From Blastocatellia bacterium (GTDB lineage: Bacteria; Acidobacteriota; Blastocatellia; HR10): DNA of 64,000 nt. Shown here piece after piece: positions 8,814-64,000 of the stretch. The position numbers and the translations under genes are program-made. The stretch's first letter is position 1; each line of letters begins with the position of its first letter. The stretch covers positions 3,120-67,119 of the forward strand of contig JANWYV010000022.1 in NCBI GenBank assembly GCA_025055075.1, written 5' to 3'. Below the pieces are notes generated by a model. It had not been told where the DNA came from, ran no database searches, and saw only the letters and a program-made list of their open reading frames with translations.

Positions 8814-10127
8814 TCAAATCACCTGCCCCTCTGGGATGACGCTATTTTTGGGGACGATCACAATGCCTTCCCGAATGTAGTAATTCGGCCCGTCGGCGTG
8901 TTGAAGTCCAGCTTCGTTCACGATGCGCGCGCCAGCACCGATACGCACGTTCCGATCGAGGATCGCGCGGCGAATGACAGCGCCTTCTCCAATGCCGATC
9001 GGCGGGAGACCAAGGGCACGATCCCGCTCCTGCTCTTCTGGCGAGGGGAAGTATTCCGCGCCGAAAGCGATCACGCCGTCCAAATGAGCACCTTTCTCCA
9101 CGCGGCTGCGGAGCCCGAGCATTGAGCGCTCTATCCGCGCGCCCGTCACTAAAGAGCCGTTGGCGATCATGGAGTTCACGATCTCGCTCTCGCGGATCTT
9201 GGCCGGGGGAAGATAGCGCGGGCGCGTGCAAAGCGGCGCGTTCGGATCGTAGAAAGAGAGCGGCGGCTCTGCGTCGAGCATCCGCATATGCGCATCGTAG
9301 TAGGCGCTGATGGTGCTCATCTCTTCCCAATACCCACGATGCCAATAGGCGTAGACTCGAGATTGAGCGACAGCCAGTGGAAGCAGCTCCAATCCGAAGT
9401 CGAAGGGTCCCAAAGCCTGTTCCAAAAGCGACGCGAGTGCCTCTCGCCGAAAAAGGTAAATTCCCGTAGCGATCAAGTACGGCGCGTTCCCATCCGCCAT
9501 GCGAAATTCTCGCAAAGTATCCTGGCGCGGCTCTTCCTGATACCGAAGGACACGCCAGTCCGATGGCCGAGGAGAATCCACGCGCGCGCCTGCGACCCTC
9601 ACGACTCCCCGCGTGCGTGCTACCGTTTCATCGGCTGCGACGACGACCAGCGTGAGATCCGCCTCTGTCTCTACGTGGAAGGCGATGACGTCTTGCAAGG
9701 CGATCCAGCCAACGCAGTCTCCAGGAAGGATTAGGATATGTCGCGCCGGCCACGGCTCGAAATGTCGCCAGGCGCGGCGGATGGCATCAGTGGGACTGCG
9801 ATACCATTGTTGGCTCTCCAAGGTTTGCTCAGCCGCGATGACCTCGACGAATTCCACCGATTCGGAGAGCCGCCCGAACCGATACGTCTGCATCACGTGC
9901 CGATTGAGCGAAAGCGAGTTGAATTGCGTGAGGACGTAAATGCGCCGCAGCCCGGCATTCAAACATTGGCTGAGGGCTAGATCAATGAGCCGATACTGTC
10001 CGATGAAGGGCAATGCGGCTTTCGCCCGCTCCGCCGTCAGAGGGAAAAGGCGCGCTCCTTGTCCAAATCCCAACACGATGGTCAAAACCTGGTGCGCGAG
10101 CCCGCGTGTGACCGCCACCCCGTTCAT
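8814..10127 (-). CDS. glgC: Glucose-1-phosphate adenylyltransferase (ADP-glucose pyrophosphorylase) family
   Basis: GlgC signature GQGARLFPLTAERAKAALPFIGQYRLIDLALSQCLNAGLRRIYVLTQFNSLSLNRH and a left-handed beta-helix C-terminus. The start is either 10139 or 10127. Its stop lies about 45 nt before the next gene's ATG. Confidence 0.8.
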   Translation of the reverse strand: MNGVAVTRGLAHQVLTIVLGFGQGARLFPLTAERAKAALPFIGQYRLIDLALSQCLNAGLRRIYVLTQFNSLSLNRHVMQTYRFGRLSESVEFVEVIAAEQTLESQQWYRSPTDAIRRAWRHFEPWPARHILILPGDCVGWIALQDVIAFHVETEADLTLVVVAADETVARTRGVVRVAGARVDSPRPSDWRVLRYQEEPRQDTLREFRMADGNAPYLIATGIYLFRREALASLLEQALGPFDFGLELLPLAVAQSRVYAYWHRGYWEEMSTISAYYDAHMRMLDAEPPLSFYDPNAPLCTRPRYLPPAKIRESEIVNSMIANGSLVTGARIERSMLGLRSRVEKGAHLDGVIAFGAEYFPSPEEQERDRALGLPPIGIGEGAVIRRAILDRNVRIGAGARIVNEAGLQHADGPNYYIREGIVIVPKNSVIPEGQVI

Positions 10128-10227
10128 GGCGCCTTTCATTGTAGCGCAGCCGCGCGCTCGGACGCTATGGACATCTCACGCGCTCCGTGAGCGCACGGGG
10201 GACCCGGGGAGGATCGCTTCGCACGGT

Positions 10228-10241
10228 GGGAATAAATTCCC
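10228..10241. promoter_or_regulatory. Perfect 14-bp palindrome GGGAATAAATTCCC in the divergent glgC / ccp promoter region
   Basis: Read directly. A second ATTCCCC half-site follows 14 nt downstream. Confidence 0.4.
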
Positions 10242-10309
10242 GCTACCGGTGTGTATTCCCCTATGGAAGATTTTCGAGAGAGGATCGAGGCCATAAGGAG
10301 GGAAACCGT

Positions 10310-11551
10310 ATGGAGGGAAGAAGGATGAGATGCACGAAGCTGCTCGTCCTGGGACTCATCCTCGTCGGGTTCGGCATTGGGATGGGGGGAACACGCACGA
10401 GTGCTCCTAGCCCCCAGAAGTTTCAGATCCAGATCCCCTTGGGGATCCCTGCCGATCTCTGGGAGATGATGATTCCAGCCGATAATCCAATGACCGAAGC
10501 CAAGGTCGCCCTCGGTCGCGATCTCTATTTCGATAAGCGGCTTTCCGTAGACAATACCGTCAGCTGCGCGACCTGTCACGACCCGCGCTTCGCGTTCACT
10601 GATGGGAAGCCCGTCTCCGAAGGAGTTGGGGGCAAAAAGGGCGCGCGGAATGCGCCGACGGTGCTGAACGCGATGTTCAATGAGGAGCAATTCTGGGATG
10701 GACGAGCGAAGACGCTCGAAGAACAAGTCTTGCAACCGCTCATCAATCCCGTCGAGATGGCCATGCCCTCGCATGATGCCGTCGTGGCGAAGGTCCGTGG
10801 CATCCCGGAATACGTCCGGCGCTTCCAAGAAGTCTTCGGCGGGCGCAATCCGGTGACCATCGAGAACATCGCCAAGGCGATCGCTGCCTTCGAGCGCACG
10901 CTCCTTTCGGGGGATTCGCCCTTTGATCGCTTCATAGCGGGCAATCCGAACGCCATCAGCGAGGCCGCTCGCCGTGGGTGGGAGTTATTCAAGGGGAAAG
11001 CTCGCTGCATCACCTGTCATGAGTTCAATCCATCCTCGCCCTTCTTCACCGATTTCAAGTATCACAACATCGGCATCGGCATGAAAGCCACGCAGAATTT
11101 CGAACCGCTCGTGCGGCAGATTCAGCAAATGGCCCAGGAGAATCGCCTGACGGCGGAAGCGCTCGATCGGCTCGCGCTCACCGAAGGATTCTCCGAGCTC
11201 GGGCGCTTTCTCGTGACCCGTCAGCCGAAAGACTTGGGGGCGTTCAAGACCTCCCCCTTGCGCGACATCGAGCTAACGGCCCCCTACATGCACGATGGGA
11301 GTTTGAAGACGCTCCGCGAAGTGATTGATTTCTACGACAGGGGCGGCGAGCCCAATCCGAATCTCGACGGTGGGATCGTGAAGCTCAATCTCACCGAGCA
11401 AGAGAAGGCGGATCTAGAGGAGTTCCTGAAAAGTCTGACGAGCGATTGGGTGCGGCGGGTCGCTCGTGGGGAGATCAAGCTGGCCGCCGGACCCACTTCC
11501 GAGAATCCGACGCCGAACCTGGCGCGTGGTTCTCGGTCTTCGAGGAGGTGA
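10310..11551 (+). CDS. ccp: Di-haem cytochrome c peroxidase (BCCP/MauG family)
   Basis: Two CxxCH motifs (CATCH, CITCH). Conserved PYMHDGS and FKTSPLRD motifs. Signal peptide after MEGRRMRCTKLLVLG. AAGGAGGG RBS upstream of ATG 10310. Confidence 0.85.
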   Translation: MEGRRMRCTKLLVLGLILVGFGIGMGGTRTSAPSPQKFQIQIPLGIPADLWEMMIPADNPMTEAKVALGRDLYFDKRLSVDNTVSCATCHDPRFAFTDGKPVSEGVGGKKGARNAPTVLNAMFNEEQFWDGRAKTLEEQVLQPLINPVEMAMPSHDAVVAKVRGIPEYVRRFQEVFGGRNPVTIENIAKAIAAFERTLLSGDSPFDRFIAGNPNAISEAARRGWELFKGKARCITCHEFNPSSPFFTDFKYHNIGIGMKATQNFEPLVRQIQQMAQENRLTAEALDRLALTEGFSELGRFLVTRQPKDLGAFKTSPLRDIELTAPYMHDGSLKTLREVIDFYDRGGEPNPNLDGGIVKLNLTEQEKADLEEFLKSLTSDWVRRVARGEIKLAAGPTSENPTPNLARGSRSSRR

Positions 11552-11556
11552 CCGCT

Positions 11557-12681
11557 ATGTGGCCTTTGAAATGGAAGAAACGCGAACAGGAGTATCGTCG
11601 GCAGCGTGAAGAATTCTTCGAGGCTGTGAAGCGGCTCAACCGTCGGGACTTCCTGAAAATCGCGAGTCTCTCGGCGGCCGTCTTCACGGCGAAACACGTT
11701 GTCCCACCCCATTCGTTCCAAGTCGTGGACGTCGTGCGGGCCGATCCGCAGGAGAAGCCACTCTTCCGCTTCGCTTACATCTCCGATACGCACCTGTATG
11801 AGCGGGAGCTGAACGAACGCTTCGTGAATGCGGCCTTGCGCGCCGTGCGCGATGTCAATGCCCTGAATCCGCCTCCGGATTTCGTGATCTTCGGCGGCGA
11901 TTTGGCGCAGCTCGGGCAGGCGAAAGAGTTGGAGCTGGGGAAGCAGATCCTGAGCGAGCTGAAGGTGCCGGTGAAGATGATGGTCGGCGAGCACGATTGG
12001 TTCCTCGACATGGGCGAGAAATGGCGCGAGTTGTTCGGGCCCGAGAATTACTCCTTCGATCATAAGGGCGTGCACTTCATCGTCCTGATGAGCGTGCACG
12101 AGAAGGACTTCTGGACCGCGCGAGGGATGACGCCCATGGAGCGCATGCTCACGGTCGCGCAGCTTGATAATCCCCTCCAGAGCCCGTTCGAGGTGGGCGA
12201 GGCAGGACGTGAGTGGTTGCGGCGCGATCTGGCAAAAGTCTCCAAGGACACGCCCATCATCATCTTCTCGCACTCGCCACTCTACAAGTACTATCGCCCG
12301 TGGAACTTCTGGACCGAGGATGCGGAGGAGATTCACAAGATGCTCGCTCCGTTCAAGTCGGTGACGGTGATCCATGGGCACACGCATCAGTTGCTGACGA
12401 ATCGGATCCAGAACATCCACTTCCACGGGATGCTCGCGACGGCCTGGCCGTGGCCCTACGCTCCAGAGGGCTTGCCGAAGTTGACCGTGCCGATGAATCG
12501 TCCGGATCCTTTCGACGAAGCCGATGGGACAGGATGGGGGACCGTGGACGTGCATCGCGACGGCTACGTGGACAAGCATTACAACCTCTGGAGCCGAAAC
12601 CCGATCACGGTCGCCAAGGCCTATCTGGAATCGTGGGGGAAGGAGGCGATCCCTCCGGCTCCCGAATTACCACCCTACTAG
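11557..12681 (+). CDS. Tat-exported calcineurin-like metallophosphoesterase
   Basis: Twin-arginine signal (NRRDFLKIASLSAAVFTA). Metallophosphoesterase motifs (YISDTHL, GGDLAQ, GEHDW, GHTHQ). GAGGAGGTGA RBS. Separated from ccp by only 5 nt. Confidence 0.8.
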   Translation: MWPLKWKKREQEYRRQREEFFEAVKRLNRRDFLKIASLSAAVFTAKHVVPPHSFQVVDVVRADPQEKPLFRFAYISDTHLYERELNERFVNAALRAVRDVNALNPPPDFVIFGGDLAQLGQAKELELGKQILSELKVPVKMMVGEHDWFLDMGEKWRELFGPENYSFDHKGVHFIVLMSVHEKDFWTARGMTPMERMLTVAQLDNPLQSPFEVGEAGREWLRRDLAKVSKDTPIIIFSHSPLYKYYRPWNFWTEDAEEIHKMLAPFKSVTVIHGHTHQLLTNRIQNIHFHGMLATAWPWPYAPEGLPKLTVPMNRPDPFDEADGTGWGTVDVHRDGYVDKHYNLWSRNPITVAKAYLESWGKEAIPPAPELPPY

Positions 12682-12694
12682 GGAGGAGGCGGCA

Positions 12695-13300
12695 ATGAGG
12701 ACGATGAAATTGTTCGTTCTGGTTCTCGGGATCGTTGGACTGGCGCTCGTGGCGACATCGCTTGAACGGCGAACGGTGGGCGCCCAAGAGCCGAAGGCGT
12801 CTGGCGGTTCCGATCGCCTCGTCGTGCAGTTGTGCGACGGAGAGACGAAGCTGGAGATCGCTGATGCCCGCGCTGGTGAAGTCCTGCCGCCGGAGAAAGC
12901 GCGCGAAGTCGCGCGACGCATGATGGCCGCTTATACCGAACAGCAGGCGAAGCAGGCCTCCAAGTGGACGGCGCGCGATCGCATGATCTGGGAGCGCGAG
13001 CTGAAGCGCACCATCGAGGAGGGATATAAGCTCTTCCACGATTGGCGAGCGCTCGGCGGAACCATCGGGATCTCCTGCGATATGTGCCATCCCGACGCGG
13101 CGGCGACGCATCCGGAGACCTACCCGAAATTCCAGACGCAGCTCAAGCGCATCGCCACGCTGCGCGATATGATCAACTGGTGCATCGAGAATCCGATGAA
13201 GGGGAAGCCCTTGGCGGCTGATGATCCGCGCATGATCGCGCTCGAAGCTTATATCACGAGCACGCGTAAGGGCGTTCCGCTTGAACCGGGGAAACATTGA
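12695..13300 (+). CDS. Monohaem c-type cytochrome, SoxX/SoxA-like class I fold
   Basis: Signal peptide. Single CDMCH haem motif followed by LRDMINWCIENPMKGKPL...ALEAYITS, which resembles the SoxAX-type cytochrome signature. GGGAGGAGG RBS. 13 nt downstream of the metallophosphoesterase. Confidence 0.7.
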   Translation: MRTMKLFVLVLGIVGLALVATSLERRTVGAQEPKASGGSDRLVVQLCDGETKLEIADARAGEVLPPEKAREVARRMMAAYTEQQAKQASKWTARDRMIWERELKRTIEEGYKLFHDWRALGGTIGISCDMCHPDAAATHPETYPKFQTQLKRIATLRDMINWCIENPMKGKPLAADDPRMIALEAYITSTRKGVPLEPGKH

Positions 13301-13310
13301 TGAACTCGGG

Positions 13311-13348
13311 GGGCTCCGCGCGCGTGCGCGTGGAGCCCTTCTTCGTGT
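13311..13348 (+). terminator. Rho-independent terminator-like hairpin after the cytochrome operon
   Basis: GGGCTCCGCGCG...CGCGTGGAGCCC stem with one mismatch, followed by TTCTTCGTGTG. Confidence 0.45.
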
Positions 13349-13614
13349 GAGCGACCGAGCAAAGCCGCCGACGAACCGCGAGATGAGTCCGAGCGAGGCG
13401 AGTGACACGAGCGTGACCGGAGTCCAGGATTAGATCGCTCGCAAGCTCGCGATGCAGAACAGACTTGATCTTCGTAGAGGAACCGCTTTGTTATCCCACG
13501 CCGAACGCGAATCGTCCGCTCCGTGGTGCGCTTGACGCCGAAATTCGTTCGCCTGTGGCTGGCGTTCGGTGCTCTGAGGGGGCGATGAAGCGCGAGACGT
13601 GGATGTCGGACAGG

Positions 13615-14583
13615 TTAAGAAAGGCGGCCACGCAATAGGCTGTAATACTCGATTTCCTCGGGGTCCTCGATCTTGTATTTCTCCCAGATCGTGGCATAGC
13701 CGCGAACAGCGCGCAAGATCTCAGCGACCGACGCGATGTCCTGCGGGAAGATGAGGTTGAAGTTCACTCCGGGAGCTCCCGCGCGCAGCAGATGCTCGAC
13801 GATCCCGATAGTGAGCTCTATGCCGAGGCGCACGACTTCTTCCTTGCTCTTGGCCCCATCCAATCGCTCCAAAATCCAGCGAGGAACCGGAATGTGCAAG
13901 CTCGTTTGTAAGAAGAGACAGCGACGCACGCTCGTGAGCGGAATCACAGAGGGGAGGATTGGGACCGCGATCCCCTGCGCGAGCGCCGCCTCCACATAGC
14001 GGACGTAGTTCGTGGGATCGGTGATGATGTTGGCGATGATGCCATCCGCGCCGGACTCGACCTTTTGTCGTTGATAGGCCATGTGCTTTGAGAGCGCATG
14101 CGCGGGATATTCCGGATGTCCGGCGACGAAGATGTCGATCGCGTACCCCTGCTCATCGCGATAGTCCCGAATGAGTCGGACCAATTCGACCGTGGAGAAT
14201 TTGAAGGCGTCCACTTCGCGCGAACGATGAGGTGTCGGATCGCCGCGAAGGATGAGGACATCGGAGACCGCCTTTCGATTCATCTCATCGGCGCGGCTGT
14301 AGACGCTGCGGATCGAGCCTTCATCGCGCGCCGTCAGATGAATGACGATCGGCGTCTCCGGTCTCCAGGCGCGAATCGTCTCCACGACCGAGAGCGGATT
14401 CATGCGAAAGCTGCCGCCCGTGCTGTTGGTCACGGCGATGCCCGCGATATCGAAGTCCTTCAGGGCGCGCACCATCTCGTCGGTCTTCACCATGGTCTTG
14501 TAATTCGCGGGCGGACTGATTTCGACGGTGAAGGTCTTCTCACCGGCGTCAGCTTTCGCGCGCAGTGTGCTGAGCAATGCCAT
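13615..14583 (-). CDS. metF: 5,10-methylenetetrahydrofolate reductase
   Basis: MTHFR family architecture over the full 322 aa (TIM barrel, FAD-binding region). Confidence 0.8.
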   Translation of the reverse strand: MALLSTLRAKADAGEKTFTVEISPPANYKTMVKTDEMVRALKDFDIAGIAVTNSTGGSFRMNPLSVVETIRAWRPETPIVIHLTARDEGSIRSVYSRADEMNRKAVSDVLILRGDPTPHRSREVDAFKFSTVELVRLIRDYRDEQGYAIDIFVAGHPEYPAHALSKHMAYQRQKVESGADGIIANIITDPTNYVRYVEAALAQGIAVPILPSVIPLTSVRRCLFLQTSLHIPVPRWILERLDGAKSKEEVVRLGIELTIGIVEHLLRAGAPGVNFNLIFPQDIASVAEILRAVRGYATIWEKYKIEDPEEIEYYSLLRGRLS

Positions 14584-17168: not shown

Positions 17169-20100
17169 TCATCGGATGGTGAGAGTGAGCTCATAGGTGA
17201 AAGTCGGGCCGCCGCGGCCTTGGGCTTCGGTGAGGCGCACGAAATAGCGTCCGAAAAGGGGCAGGGTGACGAAAGTCAGCGAAGGATCGCGCGTATCTGA
17301 GGCGACGCTCTCTGCGAGCTTCACCATCCCGAAGAAAAGCTCGAGCTTGAGCGTCGCTGGAGAAGGAGGCGTGAGCGTCTTCGCTCTGACCGTGATCGTC
17401 ACCACATCACTGCGCTCGCTGTCGAAGAAGAAAACGTCTGCGTCTCCGGCGGGATTGATCGTCCCCGTGATCGGCGTCTCTGGTGGGAGTTGATTCGCTT
17501 GTGCGAATTCATTATTGGGCTCCGTCTCCTGCGGGCGTGCGGCGCCCGTGAGCGTCACCGTAGCTCGGTAGATATAGTTCGGCCCGCCCTTCCCGTCGAA
17601 GCTGCGCACGCGGAAGAAATAGCGACCGTCAGCGGGAATCGTGAAGCTGAGCCGCGAATCGGTCGAACCTTCGGCATCATCGTTCTCGGCCAATTGCTGG
17701 CCGCGACTGTCAAAGAGCGTGACGACCGTATCCAAAGGCGAAGGCGGCATGAGCGAGCGCGCGTCCAGATCAATGACGAGCTGTTGGCCGCGTCTGGCTT
17801 CGAAGGCGAAGAAGTCCACGTCGCCCGCTGGGTTGATCGTCCCGCTTACGGTCACATTCGGCGTGATCGCATTCGCCTGAGTCAGCGAATTATTCGGCTC
17901 CGATTCCATCGCCATGCCGGGAGGAGGGGGAGCGGCTCCCGTCAGCGTGACGAGCGCCTCATACGTGTAAGAGGGACCGCCTTTCGGGCTGAAGTTGCGG
18001 ATGCGCACGAAGTACTGCCCCGAACGGGGGATTTCAAATGTGAGGAGCGAGTCGAGCGCGCCTTCGGCGTCATCGTTCTCCGCGAGCTGTTGCCCGTTGC
18101 TATCGAAGAGCGTGACAATGGTATCCGCCTCGGACGGCGGCGTGAGCGAGCGCGCATTGATATCCACCGTCAGGCGCTGACCGGGATTGGCCGTGAATGA
18201 GAAGAAGTCCACGTCGCCAGCTGGATCAAGCCTTCCCACGATGAGGACATCGGGCGTGATCGCCTGAGCTTGGGCGAAGGCGTTATTGGGTTCGGATTCG
18301 TTCACTCGCGCGGGCGCGCCTCCAGTGAGGGTGACGGAAGCTTCGTAGGTGAAGTCTCGTCCGCCTTTGTTCCCGAAGTCCCGGATGCTGAAGACATAGC
18401 GTCCGGCGGCGGTGAACGTGAACTCGAGCAGAGAATCGAGCTGTCCGGGCGCGCGATCATCGTTCTCGGCCAGTTTTCGCCCGCTGCTGTCGAAAAGCGC
18501 GACGATCGTATCAGCCGCCGAAGGAGGAGTGAGCCGCTTGGCCGCGACATCAATCCGCACGCGTTGTCCGGCGCTCGCTTGGAAGGCGAAGAAGTCCACG
18601 TCGCCCTGAGGATCGAGCACGCCGCGGATCGTTACATTCGGTGTGATCGGATTCGCTTGCGCGACGGAATTATTCGGCTCGGCTTCAGTGAAGCGACCGG
18701 GGGGAACGCCGCCCGTGAGGGCCACGCGCACTCGATAGGCGAAGTTCGGCCCGCCACGTTGCGAGAAATCGCGAATGCGAAAGATGTATCGGCCTGCTGC
18801 GGGCACGGTGAAGCGTAAGAGCGAATCCCGCGTGTCCGAGGATTCGTCGTCGTTCTCGGCCAATTGTCGCCCGCTGCTGTCGTAGAGCGTGACGACCGTA
18901 TCAGCCGGAGATTTCGGCGTGAGCGATTGCGCATCCACGTCAATGATCACCTGCTGTCCGGCACTGGCTTCGAAGGCGAAGAAATCCACGTCATTGGCTG
19001 GATCCAAGGTGCCCACAATGGTGGTATCGGGGACGATCGAATTCGCCGTCGCGAGCGTGTTGTTCGGCTCCGTCTCGTTCACCATTCCTTCGCTCATCCT
19101 CTCAACAGCAGACGTCGCCGATGTGGAGAACGGCGCGCTCGTGCTGCTGAAGCGGAAGGTGAACGCGAGCGTGGCGTCTTGCGGCCGAGGGACCGGCCCC
19201 CCAGCGCTCGTGATCGCGATGAGGTAAGTCGTTGCTGCTCTCACGTTCACTGTGAGCTGAGAAGTGGCCAGGAAGCCCCAATCGTCGTTGCAGGCGATCT
19301 CCCGGAGCGCGGGGCATGAGCCCGTGTAGACGGCGATGGTCGTATCGTAGCTACTTCCGAGTGTGCTCAGCGTGATCGTCCCGTTGCTCGGAGGGGTGAA
19401 GCTATACCATACGCTTTGGCTGCCGCGCCTTCCTCCTGTGCAGGATTGCAGGGGGTCAGTCGCCACCGAGGTCGCCGTCCAGACGTTCACTCGATCCACG
19501 AACGATGTGCCAGAGATCGGTGTCGCCGAAGCGCAGTCGTCGTTCGACGGGCGCGCGACCGAAGTGTTCAAGATGATGTCCGCATTCTCGACGACCATCC
19601 CGGGGAAGACAGTGATGAGCGCGCGATCGTTCGGATCATCGCGATCAGATTCTCCAGGGCCACTGTAGAATTCGGGGGGCGCCGGCAAAGGGGAAGGGGG
19701 ATCCAACGGGCCGACACGTGAGGCATCAGTGAAGCGCGGATCAATAGGCTCGATCTCGACCGTATAGGTGCCGGGAGGAAGCCCTCGAAGCTCGTAGTAT
19801 CCGAACAGATCGGGATCGTCCGAGCCCACGTATCCCAGGCGAAACGATTTGTCCGACTTCGGAACGGTGCCAATGTAGCGGTATCCGGAGATAGTGGAGA
19901 CAGCCGTCAGTCGCGGATCATCCACTTTCCGCGCGATGACGTTCGCCCCCATGAAGCCATGGCCGTCGGCGTAGCGGATGCGTCCGCGGATCGTCCCGGT
20001 CGTCAGCCCGAAGTCGGGCGCGGGATAGAGGTTGGAGATCGCCACTCGATCATCGAGATGCAGCGTGGCCCACTCCTCGACGCGAAATTGCGCGGTGAAG

Positions 20101-20741
20101 AAGGGAAACATCGTGGGAACCGTGTGATCGTTGGTCGGGTCAGCGTCGAAGACGGCTTCCGAGTTGAGCTGGGAATGATCGAGGCCGAGGAAATGACCGA
20201 TCTCGTGGGTGAGGAAGCCGCGAAGCCGATCCGGCGTTGTGGCGAAGCGCCCGTTGATGAGGATGACGCCTTGGAGGATTTCAGCATCCGTCATTGTGAG
20301 TGGGGCGGCCCACGCTCCCAAACGAGTGCTGCTGCCCCGTCCAAGGAGAGCGTCCATGGCGCTCCCATCGGAATCCAGGATCACTGGGTTCGTGCAGAGG
20401 CGTTGCTCGGTGCACTGGCGGATGATCTCGTTCATGAAGGAGAGCACGTTCATGCCGGTCACATCTACGCTCGTGAGGCCGACCATTTGGAATCGAAGGC
20501 GCGCTGTAGGGACACTCGCCCAGGTCTCGAAGGCCGCTCTGACGAGCGCTGCGGCATCTGCGTGAGAGAGTGAGCCGAGCGACCCTTGATCGAGCGTGTA
20601 TGTGATCGGCCGCGTCGGGTTCCAGCGGAACGGCAGACCCCCTCGGGTAAAGGCTATGGGGCCGCCGGCCCAAAGGCGGAAGGAGTGAAAGGGCCCAAGG
20701 AGGACCATTGCGCTGAGGATGAGAGCGATTCGACGAGTCAT
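17169..20741 (-). CDS. Secreted zinc metalloprotease (metzincin, matrixin/M10-like) with carboxypeptidase-regulatory-like domain and six pre-peptidase C-terminal (PPC) domains
   Basis: Signal peptide MTRRIALILSAMVLLG. HEIGHFLGLDHS zinc site (HExxHxxGxxH) with a downstream Met-turn. One Cys-containing PPC-like domain followed by five tandem ~120-aa repeats (EPNNxxAQANxITP...GDVDFFxF...LAENDD...GRY). GGAGG RBS 9 nt upstream. Confidence 0.85.
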   Translation of the reverse strand: MTRRIALILSAMVLLGPFHSFRLWAGGPIAFTRGGLPFRWNPTRPITYTLDQGSLGSLSHADAAALVRAAFETWASVPTARLRFQMVGLTSVDVTGMNVLSFMNEIIRQCTEQRLCTNPVILDSDGSAMDALLGRGSSTRLGAWAAPLTMTDAEILQGVILINGRFATTPDRLRGFLTHEIGHFLGLDHSQLNSEAVFDADPTNDHTVPTMFPFFTAQFRVEEWATLHLDDRVAISNLYPAPDFGLTTGTIRGRIRYADGHGFMGANVIARKVDDPRLTAVSTISGYRYIGTVPKSDKSFRLGYVGSDDPDLFGYYELRGLPPGTYTVEIEPIDPRFTDASRVGPLDPPSPLPAPPEFYSGPGESDRDDPNDRALITVFPGMVVENADIILNTSVARPSNDDCASATPISGTSFVDRVNVWTATSVATDPLQSCTGGRRGSQSVWYSFTPPSNGTITLSTLGSSYDTTIAVYTGSCPALREIACNDDWGFLATSQLTVNVRAATTYLIAITSAGGPVPRPQDATLAFTFRFSSTSAPFSTSATSAVERMSEGMVNETEPNNTLATANSIVPDTTIVGTLDPANDVDFFAFEASAGQQVIIDVDAQSLTPKSPADTVVTLYDSSGRQLAENDDESSDTRDSLLRFTVPAAGRYIFRIRDFSQRGGPNFAYRVRVALTGGVPPGRFTEAEPNNSVAQANPITPNVTIRGVLDPQGDVDFFAFQASAGQRVRIDVAAKRLTPPSAADTIVALFDSSGRKLAENDDRAPGQLDSLLEFTFTAAGRYVFSIRDFGNKGGRDFTYEASVTLTGGAPARVNESEPNNAFAQAQAITPDVLIVGRLDPAGDVDFFSFTANPGQRLTVDINARSLTPPSEADTIVTLFDSNGQQLAENDDAEGALDSLLTFEIPRSGQYFVRIRNFSPKGGPSYTYEALVTLTGAAPPPPGMAMESEPNNSLTQANAITPNVTVSGTINPAGDVDFFAFEARRGQQLVIDLDARSLMPPSPLDTVVTLFDSRGQQLAENDDAEGSTDSRLSFTIPADGRYFFRVRSFDGKGGPNYIYRATVTLTGAARPQETEPNNEFAQANQLPPETPITGTINPAGDADVFFFDSERSDVVTITVRAKTLTPPSPATLKLELFFGMVKLAESVASDTRDPSLTFVTLPLFGRYFVRLTEAQGRGGPTFTYELTLTIR
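17172..19085 (-). repeat. Five tandem in-frame coding repeats of ~370 nt (PPC domains) inside the metalloprotease gene
   Basis: Repeated protein blocks are also visible at DNA level, for example a recurring GTTATTCGGCTC / GTTGTTCGGCTC block that encodes the EPNN motif. Confidence 0.7.
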
Positions 20742-20760
20742 GGCAAAAGGACCTCCATCA

Positions 20761-21336
20761 CTAGCGGGATGCGTTCGCCCCTCGCGCGATGAGTGCGGCG
20801 AGCACCTCATACTCGATGGGGCCATGCTCATGGCGACTGACGAGCGCCCGCTCGGCGGACGAGAGTGCCAAGCGGGCGGACGAGTCGTCGAAGAGCCCTC
20901 GGTTATCGAAGCCGTTGACAGCCATCCGTCGTTTCGTCTGCGGATCTCGGAAGAGGCGGAATTTCCCAGCCATTCCAGCAACGGGGCTGGTCAGGCCATA
21001 ACGGCTCTTCGGATAGAGGAAGAGCATGACCTCCTCGCCTTCCCGATAGCTGGGCAAATGAAATGGACGAAAGGTCTTCGAACCGCCGATCTGGAGGAAC
21101 GTGAACGAATCTCCCTCGAGGCTCCCTTTGAACGCGCGCTCGACGGCGAGCGTGACGCGCGTGATGGTCAGGAAGGGATATTGTGGGTGTGGTTCTTCGC
21201 GAACCTTGAGAACACGTCCGACGAGGATCGTGCCCGCGCTCTCGACCAGCTCCGCAAGCGTCGCCGGGGCGTGTTGGGCTCGCGCTGAGGGCGCGAGGCA
21301 TCCCAGGAGAAGAAGAACGATGAGAGCGCGTCTCAT
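20761..21336 (-). CDS. Hypothetical secreted protein encoded immediately upstream of the metalloprotease
   Basis: 191 aa. Signal peptide MRRALIVLLLLGCLAPSARAQ. GGGAGGAAAGG RBS. 20-nt gap to the protease start. No recognisable domain. Confidence 0.6.
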   Translation of the reverse strand: MRRALIVLLLLGCLAPSARAQHAPATLAELVESAGTILVGRVLKVREEPHPQYPFLTITRVTLAVERAFKGSLEGDSFTFLQIGGSKTFRPFHLPSYREGEEVMLFLYPKSRYGLTSPVAGMAGKFRLFRDPQTKRRMAVNGFDNRGLFDDSSARLALSSAERALVSRHEHGPIEYEVLAALIARGANASR

Positions 21337-59941: not shown

Positions 59942-60322
59942 CTATAAGTGCGCCTCGGAGGAAGAGCCCGGCTTCTCCTCCTCTCCCATTCTCGTGCGAA
60001 ATTGGCGAGCGCCCAGCTCATCCAGAAGGGTCCCTTCCCAAAACGGGACGCCGACGAAATACGCGACGCGGCCTATAACGTGCGCAGCGATCGGCGCCGT
60101 CAGAAGGATGAACGCCAACGTCGCCAATGCGCGCGCTGAGATGCCGAGATCCCCGTAGTGAATGGCCACGGCCAGGAGGATGAGCCCAGCTCCAAGTGAA
60201 CCGGCCTTCGACGTGGCGTGCATGCGCGTGAAGAGATCGGGCATGCGGATCAATCCCAGTGCCGCGATGAGCATGAAGGTCGCTCCGCATAGCATCATCA
60301 CCGCGACGATGTAGGCCCTCAT
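59942..60322 (-). CDS. mrpG: Monovalent cation/H+ antiporter subunit G
   Basis: MnhG/PhaG family (AALGLIRMPDLFTRMHATSKAGSLG). ATGA overlap with mrpF. Confidence 0.8.
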   Translation of the reverse strand: MRAYIVAVMMLCGATFMLIAALGLIRMPDLFTRMHATSKAGSLGAGLILLAVAIHYGDLGISARALATLAFILLTAPIAAHVIGRVAYFVGVPFWEGTLLDELGARQFRTRMGEEEKPGSSSEAHL

Positions 60323-60585
60323 GGCTGTCCTCGTTTTCGCACGTATTGGGCGAAGGCGATCGTGCCCAGAAAGGAGATAAGTGCCAGTAGGGTGGCGACA
60401 TCCAAAAATACCGGATTCTGCGCGGCGATGGCGTAGACAGCACTCAATCCGACGCAGAGGGTGGAGAGGAGATCGAGCGCGACGACTCGATCCGGCAGCG
60501 TCGGTCCGCGAAGCAAGCGCACGAAGGCCAGAAAGAGCGCCGCGACGAGTATTCCCAGAGCGAGCGAAGGTGCGGCGTCCATCAT
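60319..60585 (-). CDS. mrpF: Monovalent cation/H+ antiporter subunit F
   Basis: 88-aa, three-TM MnhF-like protein (LLRGPTLPDRVVALD). Confidence 0.8.
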   Translation of the reverse strand: MMDAAPSLALGILVAALFLAFVRLLRGPTLPDRVVALDLLSTLCVGLSAVYAIAAQNPVFLDVATLLALISFLGTIAFAQYVRKRGQP

Positions 60586-61058
60586 CGAAGCACCTCCATG
60601 ATCCGTCGTTCAAAGCCCTCTTTCACCCGGCGTCGCACGGCATCGGCATCGTCAATGTACATGACGTGGATATAGAGCGTGCGCCGGTCGGGAGAGACTT
60701 CCAGACTGAGCGTCCCTGGCGTCAACGTGATCAAGTTCGCCAGGAAAGTGATCCCCACATCGGTCCGCAGGTCGAGTGGGATGCCAACTACGCCAGGACG
60801 CATGTAGTGCGTCGGAGTGAGCACATCGTGAGCCACCCGCAGGCTGGAGAGGATCAGTTCCCAGAGGAAGAAGACGATGAGGCCGAGGACCTGCGGGACC
60901 TTGCGAAAATACGGCGGAGGGCTTCCCAAGACTCGATGTGTGAACAGCAGGATCCCATACCCGAGCAAAAAGCCCAACAGGAAATTGTCCGGTGCAAAAC
61001 GCCCCGTCAAGACGACCCACGCCAAGGCCAACAGCAGATTCCACAGCAGAAGCGTCAT
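60582..61058 (-). CDS. mrpE: Monovalent cation/H+ antiporter subunit E
   Basis: MnhE family. ATGA overlaps at both ends. Confidence 0.8.
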
Positions 61059-62578
61059 GACCGACCCCGGAACATTGTGGAGATGTAGAGATCCGGATCT
61101 TGCAATTGTTCGGCTGCCGCTTCCGCCAGCGCGAGCACGAATTCGGCGCCCAAGCCGATCAGGATTGTCAGGAGCGCCAGTCCCGCGCTCGAGAGAATCC
61201 CCCAGCGGGCCGTCACAACGCCCGACGGCGCGAGCGGGGTGAGCGTCGAGGGAACTGGAGCGGGCGCCGACGATGCAGGCGGATCATCGGCTGCGGGTTT
61301 CCAAAAGGCCTCCGTCCAAATCTTCATCATCGAGAGAAGCGTCAGCAGACTCACTCCCAGGGCGACGGCGACGATGATCCAGCGACCCGCTTGTAGGCCA
61401 GCTTGGACCAAAAGCAGCTTCGCGAAGAAGCCCGAAAGCGGAGGGAGACCCGCCAGCGAGAGCGCTGGGATTAAGAAGAGTATTGCCAGGCTCGGATGCG
61501 TTCGATACAGCCCCCCGAGCCGGTTCAGGTCGAAGCTCCCCTGCACGGCGTGCGCGAGACCACTTGTGAGGAAGAGGTTCGTTTTGACGATGATGTGGTG
61601 GATGATGTAGAAGATCGAGCCCGCGAGTCCCGCCGTCGTGAGGAGTCCAAGCCCCATGATCATGTAGCCAATTTGGCTGATGATGTGGAAGGAAAGGATG
61701 CGCCGAAATTCGTTCTGAGCGAGGGCGCCCAGGACGCCAGTGAGCATCGTGAGACCGGAGACGATGAGAATCACCGCATGCCCCTGGTCGGGGAAGATCA
61801 GGGTGAACACGCGAAGCAAGGCATAGACACCCACCTTCGTGAGCAATCCGGCGAAGATGGCCGAGACGGCGACCGGGGGCGTGTGATACGAGGCCGGAAG
61901 CCAGAAGAAGAGAGGGAAGATGGCCGCCTTGATCCCAAAGGCCGTCAGCAACAAGAAGGCGATCGCCGTTTTCGCCCCTGAAGGTGGCAGAGGGCGAAGT
62001 CGCTGGGCGAGGTCGGCCATATTCAGCGTTCCCACGAGACCGTAGAGCAGTCCGACGGCCGTCAGAAAGAGCGCCGAGGCCATGAGATTGAGCGTCACAT
62101 ACTTGATCGCTCCTTCGAGCTGCGCTCGTTCGCCTCCGAGTGCGAGGAGGACGAACGATGCCATGAGCATGACCTCGAACCAAACGTAGAGGTTGAAGAG
62201 ATCGCCCGTCAGGAAGGCTCCGCACACGCCCATCAGGAGGATCTGCGAAAGGGGGTAATAGCCGAAGGTCTCACGGGCCGGATCCATGTGCGCGAGGGAG
62301 AAAAGAGCGACGGCCACGCCAATCGTCGCCGCCAGCACGACCATGATAGCGCTCAACAGATCAGCGATCAACGCAATGCCGAACGGTGCAGGCCAGTTGC
62401 CCACCCAGAGGACTTGAGGACCGTGCTGCCATACTCGCACCAAAAGGTTGATGGAAGCGACCAACAGAGCCACACTCCCGACGACGCCTAATCCCCGCTG
62501 CCACTGTCGCCCGCGCCAGGCAAGGAATCCCACAGTGGCTGTCGCGAGAGGGATGAGGATGGGGAGGATGAGCGCCAT
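61055..62578 (-). CDS. mrpD: Monovalent cation/H+ antiporter subunit D (NuoN/ND4-like)
   Basis: Proton-pumping NuoL/M/N-family membrane protein. Start chosen at ATG 62578, which has GAGGAGGG upstream. An alternative start at 62599 overlaps the mrpC stop. Confidence 0.85.
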
Positions 62579-62595
62579 GAAGCATCCCTCCTCGC

Positions 62596-62943
62596 TCATG
62601 TATCCGTCGTCTTCAGGTCATCCAGGTCATCCGTGCCAACCGTTTGATACGCGCGATGAATGAGCGCCAGAGCGAAGGCGAGCACTCCGAAGCTGATGAC
62701 GATGGCCGTCAGGATGAGCGCCTGAGGGAGCGGATCCGCATATGGCGGAGGGACGCTCGATTCTCCCTCAGGGACGATTGGCGGCCGACCGCGAACCAAA
62801 CGTCCCATGGTGAAGATGAGCAAGTTGCTCCCGTTGGAGAGGAGTCCTAGGCCGATGATGAGCTTCACCACGCTGCGTCGCAGCATCATGTAGAGCCCGG
62901 TCGCGTATAAACTCCCAATGACCACAGCCAGAACGACTTCCAT
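62596..62943 (-). CDS. mrpC: Monovalent cation/H+ antiporter subunit C (NuoK-like)
   Basis: [23 protein letters not shown]...NLLIF NuoK/MnhC signature. GGAGGA is 6 nt upstream of ATG 62943. Confidence 0.85.
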
Positions 62944-62945
62944 GC

Positions 62946-63419
62946 TCATTCCTCCATGAGCGTGAAGACGATCAAAAGGGTGACGCCGACGACGACCAAA
63001 TATACGCCGACGTCGAATAGCACTGGCGTTCCGAGTTCCAGACGATCCCACTTGATCCACCGGCCGGTGAGAAACGGCATTCCTTCCAATGGCCCCAGCA
63101 GACCACTGGCGAGGGCCGTCAGTAGGCCTGCGGCGATCAATCCCTTCGGAGGGAGCCGCAGCAAAGAGTGCGCTGCTGCTGCTCCCTGCGCGAGTGCGTA
63201 AAGCGCGATGGCCGCTGCTGCCACGAGTCCGCCCACAAATCCTCCCCCCGGCGCATGGTGCCCGCGAAAGAGCAAGAAGATCGAGAAGAGCAATAGCAGC
63301 GGCAGCAACAGCCGCACGGCCAGGTTGAGAATCAGCGATGGCCGCTCCCATTCCAACAGGCGAGGACGCGCTCGCTGTCGCGGTGTCTCAAGCTCGTCGT
63401 GCGTTCGCTCTTCTCTCAT
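62946..63419 (-). CDS. mrpB: Monovalent cation/H+ antiporter subunit B
   Basis: MnhB-family membrane protein. ATGA overlap with the upstream mrpA fragment. Confidence 0.8.
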
Positions 63420-64000
63420 TGGCGATCCTCCAGACGCAAGCGGAGCAAAACATAGACCCCAATGCCAGCGAGAGCCAGCACGGTGATCTCCCCGAGCGTA
63501 TCCAGCGCGCGAAAGTCCACCAGGATCACGTTCACCACATTGCGACCGTGCGCCATGGGGACACTCTCGCGCGCGAAATATTCGGAGATGGTGGCCGGCG
63601 GCGGCATCCTCAGGATGGAGAGCACAAGCCCGCCCACCAAACTGCCGGCCAGCCCGCACATCAGGATGTCACGTACCCGCGCCCGTGGACTGGAGAGCGT
63701 CGCAAATCGCGGCAGGTAGTAAAAGACGAGAACAAAGAGGATGACCGTCAGGGATTCGATCATGAACTGCGTGAGCGCCAGATCGGGAGCGCCGAAGATC
63801 ATGTAGAACAGCGCGATCGTGTAGCCGACAACGCCGAGGGCAGCGATCGCCGCCAGTCGTGACGTGAAGCGCACGGCGGCCACGGCCGCGGCGACGATGA
63901 GTCCGGCGAGCGCGATCTCCACCACGCGCCCGCGTGAGAAGGCTTCAAAGGCGATCAGCCCTCTTTCCGCCAAAAGAGGGTATCCGGCCACGCCCACCGT
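63416..64000 (-). CDS. mrpA: Monovalent cation/H+ antiporter subunit A, C-terminal portion (5' end lies beyond the window)
   Basis: The reading frame is open to the window edge. It is the MrpA C-terminal MnhB-like domain, directly upstream of mrpB. Confidence 0.75.

Follow-up and report, generated by a model that had tools for sequence, protein, structure and literature searches.

MauG-type di-haem enzymes, cytochromes with His/Cys-ligated SoxA/TsdA-type haems and two-metal phosphoesterases are each actively studied, but their combination, which occurs in thousands of metagenomic proteins, is apparently undescribed. Here we analyse such a combination, a triad of adjacent genes for a di-haem enzyme (CCP), a metallophosphoesterase-fold protein (MPE) and a small cytochrome c (CYT), in a 64,000-nucleotide stretch of the genome of a Blastocatellia bacterium (contig JANWYV010000022.1, positions 3,120 to 67,119 of the forward strand; hereafter the window, in whose coordinates positions are given). 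The triad is a real unit, and the electron carriers that are fused or adjacent to relatives of MPE suggest that this protein works in a redox chain and is no ordinary phosphatase. A full-text literature search found no description of the triad as a module and only two partial precedents, the BthA-PhosA adjacency and the TsdA plus SoxB pathway. Each of its components falls into a known superfamily, but no characterised system corresponds to the module as a whole.

BthA of Burkholderia is a MauG-type di-haem enzyme with His/Tyr ligation that is always encoded beside PhosA, a putative purple acid phosphatase (PMC6405878). As in the triad, a His/Tyr di-haem enzyme, predicted as such in the case of CCP, stands next to an exported protein of the metallophosphoesterase superfamily. 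However, BthA is only distantly related to CCP (E 3.8e-14) and lacks the inter-haem Trp and the Ca site that CCP keeps. No SoxA/TsdA-type cytochrome is described for the BthA-PhosA pair, whereas the triad has CYT, and PhosA is set apart by its published description, being a predicted outer-membrane protein of the purple acid phosphatase type, whereas MPE is a GpdQ-like twin-arginine protein with a GEHD motif. The two systems are only analogous. MauG and MbnH share with CCP two c-type haems, a Tyr at the position of the E-haem ligand, the absence of a distal His and a conserved inter-haem Trp. Their systems differ in having mau or mbn genes and MbnP, none of which accompanies the triad, where the partners are a metallophosphoesterase and a cytochrome.

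The SoxAX-SoxB(-SoxYZ) and TsdA plus SoxB systems, like the triad, place a SoxA/TsdA haem domain with His/Cys ligation (predicted for CYT) and an enzyme of the two-metal metallophosphoesterase fold with Tat export (likewise predicted for MPE) in the periplasm. By contrast, their cytochromes are di-haem or two-domain proteins, whereas CYT has a single domain and has lost the TsdA arginine pair; MPE falls outside the SoxB/5'-nucleotidase family, no SoxYZ or SoxX is found near the triad, and the third partner is of the MauG type. Finally, canonical bacterial cytochrome c peroxidases (bCCPs) with their c551, azurin or pseudoazurin donors resemble the triad in pairing a di-haem peroxidase-fold enzyme with a small periplasmic carrier. 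They differ in their Met E-haem ligand, their distal His switch and their high-potential His/Met donor, whereas CYT is a candidate low-potential His/Cys donor.

The triad is an isolated transcription unit conserved across phyla

The three genes, and the hairpin that follows them, lie as follows:

10310..11551, + strand: CCP, Sec-exported di-haem enzyme, putatively of the MauG type, 413 aa (408 aa if the start is at 10325)
11557..12681, + strand: MPE, two-metal metallophosphoesterase-fold protein of the 'GEHD' clade with predicted twin-arginine translocation (Tat) export, 374 aa
12695..13300, + strand: CYT, Sec-exported mono-haem cytochrome of the SoxA/TsdA type with a predicted His/Cys haem, 201 aa
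13308..13341, + strand: terminator-like hairpin directly 3' of the CYT stop, followed by UUCUUCGUGU

A reading of the sequence from 10130 to 13660 places the CCP start at ATG 10310, with an in-frame alternative at ATG 10325, and its stop at TGA 11549-11551; MPE runs from ATG 11557 to TAG 12679-12681 and CYT from ATG 12695 to TGA 13298-13300. The three co-directional open reading frames (ORFs) are tightly packed, with spacers of 5 nt between CCP and MPE and 13 nt between MPE and CYT, and strong Shine-Dalgarno sites lie 6-8 nt 5' of the starts of CCP, MPE and CYT (AAGGAGGG, GAGGAGG and GGGAGGAGG, respectively). A first-pass annotation of this DNA had given the same three genes, spacers and Shine-Dalgarno sites, which this reading confirms, but had made the middle protein 375 aa, one residue too long. 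Protein lengths of 413 or 408, 374 and 201 aa are also found in the public gene calls of four identical or near-identical contigs, which belong to metagenome-assembled genomes of Blastocatellia (Acidobacteriota).

The genes on either side are unrelated and lie on the opposite strand, with a GlgC-like nucleotidyltransferase gene (8814-10139) upstream and an MTHFR gene (13615-14583), followed by TsaE and YjeF, downstream. The hairpin after CYT has a G+C-rich stem of 15 bp and folds as RNA with -32.6 kcal/mol (z = -4.4), and none of 200 shuffled sequences folds as well; a simple terminator scan of 10000-13700 did not list it because its T-tract is weak. Given the unrelated, oppositely oriented flanks and the strong hairpin after the last stop, the triad stands alone, and CCP-MPE-CYT is one isolated transcription unit.

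For comparison among genomes, we took the 80 best genome loci for MPE and located the triad genes in them by tblastn. CCP, MPE and CYT are all present, in that order, in 73 of the 80 loci, and 6 others are cut by contig ends. At one locus (L010) a class I cytochrome c of 142 aa occupies the position of CCP, beside an MPE of 74% identity. The carriers belong to at least six phyla and comprise Acidobacteriota, Myxococcota, Planctomycetota, Binatota, Kryptonia, methanotrophic Alphaproteobacteria and Gammaproteobacteria, with MPE orthologues that are 61-68% identical across phyla. MPE and CYT have about equal numbers of database relatives (5356 and 5148). Culturable carriers include Myxococcus, Corallococcus, Cystobacter, Methylocystis, where the triad lies on a plasmid, and Nitrosococcus halophilus Nc4; in the latter two the genes are annotated as cytochrome c peroxidase, metallophosphoesterase and hypothetical protein. 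The first-pass annotation had proposed a compact periplasmic redox operon and had named conservation in other genomes as a check; the triad is indeed kept as a unit, which supports that proposal.

All-against-all clustering of the flanking ORFs at the 80 loci yielded no further conserved structural gene, only regulators. Homologues of SoxY, SoxZ, flavocytochrome c sulfide dehydrogenase (FCSD), rhodanese, TauE, SCO and cbb3-type oxidase were found neither within 6 kb of the 80 triads nor in the window, the only match in this search being a CuA-like gene at two loci (L080 and L063).

Two of the carrier genomes show additional features. Vitiosangium sp. GDMCC 1.1324 has two triad copies on two contigs (L030 and L037), only one of which is followed by a pair of extracytoplasmic function (ECF) sigma and anti-sigma genes. 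In N. halophilus Nc4 (L090, 9820-17152) co-directional genes for a P-type ATPase, with a weakly matching heavy-metal-associated domain, and for two TonB-dependent receptors lie downstream of the triad, and Mnh/Mbh-type antiporter genes lie upstream of it. The Mrp/Mnh genes of the window are ~47 kb away from its triad, and the occurrence of such genes in both is probably a coincidence.

MPE defines a twin-arginine GEHD clade

The middle gene matches the Pfam family Metallophos (PF00149; 6.7e-18, 66.3 bits against a cut-off of 21.5 bits) with no second domain. Neither a 5_nucleotid_C domain nor a SoxB model is among its Pfam and NCBIfam matches at E values up to 0.1, in agreement with the first-pass observation that the SoxB 5'-nucleotidase C-domain is missing. 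The likeness to SoxB that had nevertheless been drawn holds for the superfamily only. The AlphaFold model of MPE (pLDDT 71) finds its best Foldseek matches in GpdQ, Rv0805 and purple acid phosphatases (E 4e-11 to 1e-6, target-normalised TM score 0.55-0.71, identity 13-18%). We therefore rejected an identification of MPE as SoxB, on the missing C-terminal domain, the lack of a SoxB model match and the GpdQ-like fold.

MPE shares with these enzymes the ligand framework D-x-H / G-D / G-x-H-D / H / G-H-x-H. Its motifs D77xH79, G114-D115, H239 and G274-H275-x-H277 are all invariant, as is the complete ligand set D77, H79, D115, E145, H239, H275 and H277 (81 of 81 sequences), and the catalytic His146-Asp147 is kept. 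However, motif III reads GEHD in place of the usual GNHD in all 81 sequences, E145 replacing the Asn ligand of the second metal. MPE differs from GpdQ, Rv0805 and the purple acid phosphatases in this invariant Glu, in its predicted Tat signal with a long conserved N-region and in its obligate linkage to redox proteins. The N-terminus consists of a conserved 26-residue helix, the twin-arginine motif NRRDFLK and the stretch IASLSAAVFTA; R29 and R30 are invariant in 80 of 80 orthologues. Tat export is predicted from the consensus (S/T)-R-R-x-F-L-K with a following hydrophobic stretch, the score on the Pfam TAT_signal model (14.7 bits) lying below its cut-off of 22.7 bits.

About 90 extra C-terminal residues carry the invariant loop W297-P-W299-P-Y301 (W-P-W-P-Y-A-P-E-G), and the C-terminal residue is Tyr or Phe. 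W297 aligns with His217 of GpdQ, which we take to be an active-site residue, in a weak, low-scoring second segment of the alignment; the placement of the WPW loop relative to the metals rests on this weak alignment. Clustering of the whole MPE family at 50% identity leaves essentially one full-length representative. JGI names of relatives as 'CpdA/Icc' are automatic annotations, and MPE scores 34 bits on the NCBIfam CpdA model (NF008359) against a cut-off of 225 bits. This score and the obligate synteny led us to reject a housekeeping CpdA/Icc phosphodiesterase, an identity that the first-pass annotation had given as an example of what would refute its reading. MPE is instead a tightly conserved twin-arginine GEHD clade of its own with a GpdQ/purple-acid-phosphatase-like fold.

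Relatives of MPE are fused or adjacent to electron carriers

Distant GEHD relatives were collected by tblastn against annotated plasmids and megaplasmids, and the wider clade was sampled, not surveyed in full; a profile search seeded with distant relatives (A3) returned mostly members of the abundant core family and revealed no further contexts. Across the wide clade Glu takes the place of Asn with at least 90% conservation, and a twin-arginine N-terminus is present in nearly all members. Among representatives at 50% identity we found three natural fusions of a GEHD-type MPE, all confirmed by Pfam and all from outside the window. The partner is a plastocyanin-like cupredoxin in P0358, a CuA/COX2-like domain in P0374 and a Rieske [2Fe-2S] domain in P0361. 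Adjacent genes show the same kinds of partner. In Streptomyces the gene of a plastocyanin-family cupredoxin overlaps the MPE start, and in Ralstonia an MPE relative (31% identity) is divergent from an ECF sigma/anti-sigma pair and is followed by a CuA/COX2-type cupredoxin of 125 aa.

The MPE relatives of Sinorhizobium and Phyllobacterium are 49-51% identical and retain GEHD, the WPWPYAPEGLP loop and the C-terminal Tyr. Their operons consist of a secreted Cys-x2-His-x2-Met protein, MPE and a CYT homologue, in that order, with a SCO copper chaperone alongside, ahead of the secreted protein. The CYT homologue scores 39 bits on the SoxA/TsdA family PF21342 and lacks the N-terminal Cys47 segment described below. 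In the first protein, which carries the motif CDAHGWM, Pfam found only CarboxypepD_reg; its Cys-x2-His-x2-Met is a possible copper site judged by the motif, and a cupredoxin identity considered for the Sinorhizobium protein was not confirmed by Pfam and was dropped. On S. meliloti pSymA (L081, 4239-10232) genes for an FCSD-like flavoprotein, a cytochrome c, SoxZ and SoxY lie beside the operon on the other strand. On the Phyllobacterium plasmid (L085, 6303-16978) the operon directly precedes genes for a P-type ATPase and a cbb3-type oxidase, one subunit of which is a FixO-dihaem fusion, and an FCSD-like gene and TauE/SafE are also present.

GEHD-type MPE genes on the plasmids pBVIE01 and pBVIE03 of B. 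vietnamiensis G4 (L084 and L087) have flanking genes for rhodaneses and are accompanied by a CcsA-like gene for cytochrome c assembly. Their setting is a duplicated chromate-resistance island (chrB, chrA and a superoxide dismutase gene) with a Tn3-family transposase at its border.

Independent fusions and adjacencies to four kinds of electron carrier, together with an MPE-CYT pair that outlasts exchanges of the first gene, point to electron exchange between the two-metal centre of MPE and its partners. We consider these fusions and adjacencies the strongest evidence for a redox-wired MPE.

CYT is predicted to carry a His/Cys haem

CYT contains a single CxxCH motif (C128xxC131H132) and matches SoxA-TsdA_cyt-c (PF21342; 1.1e-14, 54.6 bits against a 27-bit cut-off). 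The only significant fold neighbours of its model are TsdA and SoxA (probability 0.96-1.00). In an ungapped alignment of 55 residues, Cys163, which is invariant in 76 of 76 orthologues, aligns with Cys96 of A. vinosum TsdA, a haem ligand essential for catalysis (PMC6879331). CYT is thus predicted to be a SoxA/TsdA-type domain with a His/Cys haem. The first-pass annotation had called the protein SoxX-like and had seen a SoxX/SoxA-type signature in its C-terminus, of which the SoxA part stands, whereas the SoxX part has been discarded, as no SoxX or class I cytochrome model matches and SoxA/TsdA is the only significant family.

CYT nevertheless differs from both of its relatives. Its 90-aa haem domain is single, its N-terminal segment is unrelated to SoxA and TsdA, and its score on the SoxA equivalog model TIGR04484 is 47.4 against a cut-off of 110 bits. 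Two arginines of TsdA, Arg109 and Arg119 in precursor numbering, have been implicated in substrate binding (PMC6879331); we infer that, with 27 subtracted, these are Arg82 and Arg92 of the chain, and these positions align with the invariant Gln149 and Met159 of CYT. A thiosulfate dehydrogenase of the TsdA type was rejected, given that CYT has one haem for two and that the substrate arginine pair is replaced. The N-terminal segment contains an extra cysteine, Cys47, in a V-x-L-C-D-G strand (LCDG) ~10 residues past the predicted signal cleavage site. Both Cys47 and the C-terminal PGKH are invariant in the 25 full-length triad-type sequences that were aligned. His201 is His in 63 of 76 orthologues and Lys, Arg or Met in the other 13.

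CCP resembles MauG-type di-haem enzymes

CCP matches CCP_MauG (PF03150; 1.6e-61, 207.8 bits against a cut-off of 25.6 bits) and contains the haem motifs C86xxC89H90 and C233xxC236H237, both of which are invariant in the orthologues. Among solved structures it matches bCCPs and the MauG-like di-haem enzyme 6e1c best, and its C-terminal half is closest to the latter. Residues of the canonical peroxidatic pocket are kept, namely Glu149 and the Ca-site Asn114, which are conserved, and the inter-haem Trp129 (71 of 78 sequences). An insertion of 20-35 aa at about residues 258-295 is extra relative to MauG and MbnH.

Two positions set CCP apart from the canonical peroxidases. Val106 aligns with the distal His of the Marinobacter bCCP motif 'SIGHGW', and 76 of 77 orthologues have Val or Ile here, none having His. 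The distal His, residue 71 in P. aeruginosa numbering, sits on a loop that in resting canonical enzymes provides a ligand to the peroxidatic haem. Tyr342, invariant in 78 of 78 orthologues, aligns with Tyr294 of MauG (ungapped alignment of query fragment residues 13-56 with MauG 257-300) and with the Met ligand of the E haem of Paracoccus bCCP. His/Met versus His/Tyr ligation of the E haem divides canonical bCCPs from MauG-type enzymes (PMC11892367), and because Tyr342 places CCP on the His/Tyr side of this division, its assignment as a MauG-type di-haem enzyme is supported by alignment. This agrees with the earlier description as a peroxidase/MauG-type enzyme, in its second part; a canonical bCCP is ruled out by Tyr342 in place of Met and Val106 in place of the distal His.

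CCP is neither MauG proper nor MbnH. Its best NCBIfam matches, MbnH TIGR04039 (259.1 bits against 362.85) and MauG TIGR03791 (242.8 bits against 443.85), both fall below the cut-offs. No mau genes occur in the window or at the 80 loci, and the neighbour of CCP is a metallophosphoesterase, with no MbnP.

Regulators, promoter motif and window context

An ECF sigma factor and a zf-HC2 anti-sigma factor are encoded next to the triad at 16-18 loci from three phyla. All 16 of 16 anti-sigma proteins, across Acidobacteriota, Kryptonia and Myxococcota, have a C-terminal periplasmic CxxCH, a motif which suggests that they may be haem-c-binding sensors. At 7 loci a Fur-family protein (PF01475) is encoded directly upstream of CCP on the same strand, 1.3-2.5 kb before the MPE start. 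The motif GGAATAA(A/G)-N12-13-(C/T/G)TGT, a phylogenetic footprint obtained from the alignment, precedes CCP in every Acidobacteriota and Kryptonia locus and in those only (19 of 77), at a distance of 44-308 nt, mostly 44-156 nt, from the CCP start. Many of the motif-bearing loci have an adjacent ECF sigma/anti-sigma pair. These elements are located as follows:

Window 10229..10256, + strand: ECF-type promoter-like motif, GGAAT at 10229-10233, 16-nt spacer, TGTGT at 10250-10254
L001-L009, L038, L045, L052, L055, L058, L060, L064 and L074: further loci with the ECF-type motif
L004 1500-2354, - strand: zf-HC2 anti-sigma factor
L012 8466-9275, + strand: zf-HC2 anti-sigma factor
L055 3220-4104, - strand: zf-HC2 anti-sigma factor (13 further loci have one)
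L031, L047, L048, L049, L062, L069 and L076: Fur-family loci, from Planctomycetota, one Binatia and one deltaproteobacterial

A simple sigma-70 scan of 10000-13700 gave nothing at 10229-10256, and no triad-linked ECF sigma, anti-sigma or Fur gene is present in the 64-kb window, though the motif is. ECF factors with CxxCH anti-sigma proteins and Fur-family regulators would fit a redox, peroxide or metal signal.

Elsewhere in the window, positions 60000-64000 show a strong positive AT skew (0.23, + strand) over minus-strand genes for hydrophobic Mrp/Mnh-type antiporter subunits; this is an effect of the codon composition of membrane proteins and no separate feature. On the minus strand at 17169-20981 lies a gene for a secreted protein of 1270 aa, in which HEIGHFLGLDH, a segment with the HExxH of metalloproteases, precedes five or more tandem repeats of ~110 aa with the pattern 'EPNN...A..I.....I.G.L.P.GDVDFF.F.A..GQ......'.

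A proposed redox-linked phosphoesterase module

How might the three proteins work together? We tentatively favour, while stopping a little short of calling it probable, a two-metal MPE that is redox-wired or redox-gated and is linked through the low-potential His/Cys haem of CYT to an H2O2-using di-haem enzyme. MPE and CYT would form the core of a self-contained periplasmic redox module. MPE would be folded and loaded with metal in the cytoplasm before Tat export, and the extra carboxylate of Glu145 would favour a harder or higher-valent metal, Fe or Mn. Because of this carboxylate and the dedicated electron carriers, we suppose that the metal centre may change its oxidation state in function. 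MPE could then be a redox catalyst proper, with a bound tetrahedral oxyanion or ester as its substrate, or it could be a hydrolase whose activity depends on whether a site with Fe or Mn is oxidised or reduced. The haem of CYT would serve as a dedicated wire to the MPE centre, with Cys47 possibly a reactive thiol, and the first gene would supply the outlet or inlet of the chain, here a putative MauG-type (His/Tyr) enzyme reacting with H2O2. Electrons would flow from the substrate or metal centre to CYT, from CYT to CCP and from CCP to H2O2. The identity of the metal, the direction of electron flow and the substrate are only inferred.

The published potentials are consistent with such a chain. 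The E haem of MauG-type enzymes lies at about -100 to -200 mV (PMC11892367), and the values for His/Cys haems are -185 mV (TsdA) and -400 mV or lower (SoxAX; PMC6879331). With a low-potential haem on either side, CYT would be a thermodynamically sensible partner of CCP, unlike the canonical high-potential donors. The first-position partner is also replaceable while MPE and CYT stay, as seen at L010 and in Sinorhizobium and Phyllobacterium.

Several points weigh against this proposal. MPE has the full hydrolase machinery, His146-Asp147 and all metal ligands, with which plain hydrolysis is possible. Electron carriers beside an enzyme can serve its activation or protection alone, and those MauG-type enzymes that have been characterised act as oxidants of proteins, not as terminal peroxidases. 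In addition, the Tyr ligand of CCP and the Cys ligand of CYT are assigned by alignment, and both structure models are of moderate confidence (pLDDT 71 for MPE and 74).

A bolder form of the proposal, which we regard as doubtful although it deserves to be entertained, is that the GEHD clade is the first oxidoreductase family of the metallophosphoesterase fold, with a Tat-delivered Fe/Mn centre at which a tetrahedral oxyanion or ester binds and undergoes redox chemistry. The reactions might be the oxidative hydrolysis of reduced sulfur or phosphorus species or the reduction of toxic oxyanions. Electrons would pass through the His/Cys haem to interchangeable outlets, namely the MauG-type enzyme with H2O2, cupredoxins, Rieske domains or a cbb3-type oxidase.

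Alternative explanations

The alternative that survives best, though we judge it unlikely, is that CCP matures its neighbours, as the first-pass annotation had suggested for the phosphoesterase. With H2O2 as the oxidant, CCP would convert a residue of MPE, perhaps one in the W-P-W-P-Y loop, or Cys47 of CYT into a protein-derived cofactor or metal ligand, and CYT would re-reduce or prime the di-haem enzyme, on the model of MauG with methylamine dehydrogenase and of MbnH with MbnP. The invariant His/Tyr-type E haem and the missing distal His of CCP are what such a maturase would show, and all characterised His/Tyr members (MauG, MbnH and BthA) form bis-Fe(IV) and act as oxidants (PMC11892367). 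PhosA, always beside BthA, has been proposed as the target of its oxidation (PMC6405878), and the target Trp of MbnH lies within a WxW motif (PMC11951088). MPE has its invariant WPW, which aligns with the active-site loop of GpdQ, if only in the low-scoring stretch. However, operons without CCP, those of L010, Sinorhizobium and Phyllobacterium, keep WPWPYAPEGLP, GEHD and the C-terminal Tyr, a comparison that holds at the level of the operon only. These close relatives, which retain all invariant MPE motifs after CCP has been replaced, weaken the maturation proposal. Nor does a maturase need to be fixed in stoichiometry and synteny, as CCP is in the 73 loci, and the cupredoxin and Rieske fusions of MPE relatives point to electron transfer to the mature enzyme.

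Quite unlikely, in our view, is a minimal sulfur oxidation system, in which CYT would form a cysteinyl-thiosulfonate at Cys163 or Cys47, MPE would hydrolyse off sulfate in the manner of SoxB and CCP would pass two electrons to H2O2. Its appeal lies in the SoxA/TsdA-type domain of CYT with its conserved catalytic Cys and in the additional invariant free Cys47 near the mature N-terminus, and a two-enzyme route of TsdA and SoxB without SoxYZ has been demonstrated in Erythrobacter flavus (PMC7608252). The neighbourhoods of the wider clade also have a sulfur flavour: the Sinorhizobium MPE-CYT pair, in which CYT lacks the Cys47 segment, adjoins SoxY, SoxZ, a c-type cytochrome and an FCSD-like flavoprotein, an FCSD-like gene recurs with TauE/SafE in Phyllobacterium, and rhodanese genes flank the B. 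vietnamiensis relative. The last of these, however, belong to the chromate-resistance island, and no SoxYZ, FCSD or rhodanese is encoded within 6 kb of the 80 triads or in the window. The replacement of the TsdA substrate arginines by invariant Gln149 and Met159 and the lack of SoxYZ near the triads weaken the earlier idea of a periplasmic sulfur substrate, MPE offers neither a SoxB match nor the 5'-nucleotidase C-terminal domain but a GpdQ-like fold, and a hydrolase would have no need of the cupredoxin and Rieske domains fused to its relatives.

Finally, a loose stress operon, in which an independent periplasmic phosphodiesterase for phosphate scavenging or envelope turnover, an H2O2-removing peroxidase and its donor cytochrome would be co-transcribed only through a shared envelope-stress sigma factor response, would accommodate the ECF-type motif, the adjacent ECF or Fur-family regulators, the intact hydrolase residues of MPE and its automatic CpdA/Icc annotation, but is improbable, as it would not lead one to expect the fixed order, the 5-13 nt spacing, the high MPE identity across phyla, the equal sizes of the MPE and CYT families, a CCP that is no canonical His/Met peroxidase or the independent redox-domain fusions of MPE relatives, and as the MPE-CYT pair outlasts the replacement of CCP, which ties CYT to MPE and not to the peroxidase.

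Implications

The triad bears first on the MauG-type enzymes, whose physiological substrates and electron donors have been a long-standing gap; it offers a natural and genetically tractable partner set for a new MauG-type subfamily. It also provides a testable case of a hydrolase fold recruited to electron transfer, through the Asn-to-Glu ligand exchange and the cupredoxin and Rieske fusions. The flavodiiron proteins, built on the metallo-beta-lactamase fold, would be an analogous recruitment. For metagenome surveys, the analysis corrects the automatic labels 'CpdA/Icc', 'thiosulfate dehydrogenase' and 'cytochrome c peroxidase', which miscount cAMP, sulfur and peroxide functions. If the bolder form of the proposal is true, the triad would be an H2O2-linked respiratory or detoxifying module in the periplasm of soil Acidobacteriota, Myxococcota, methanotrophs and planctomycetes.

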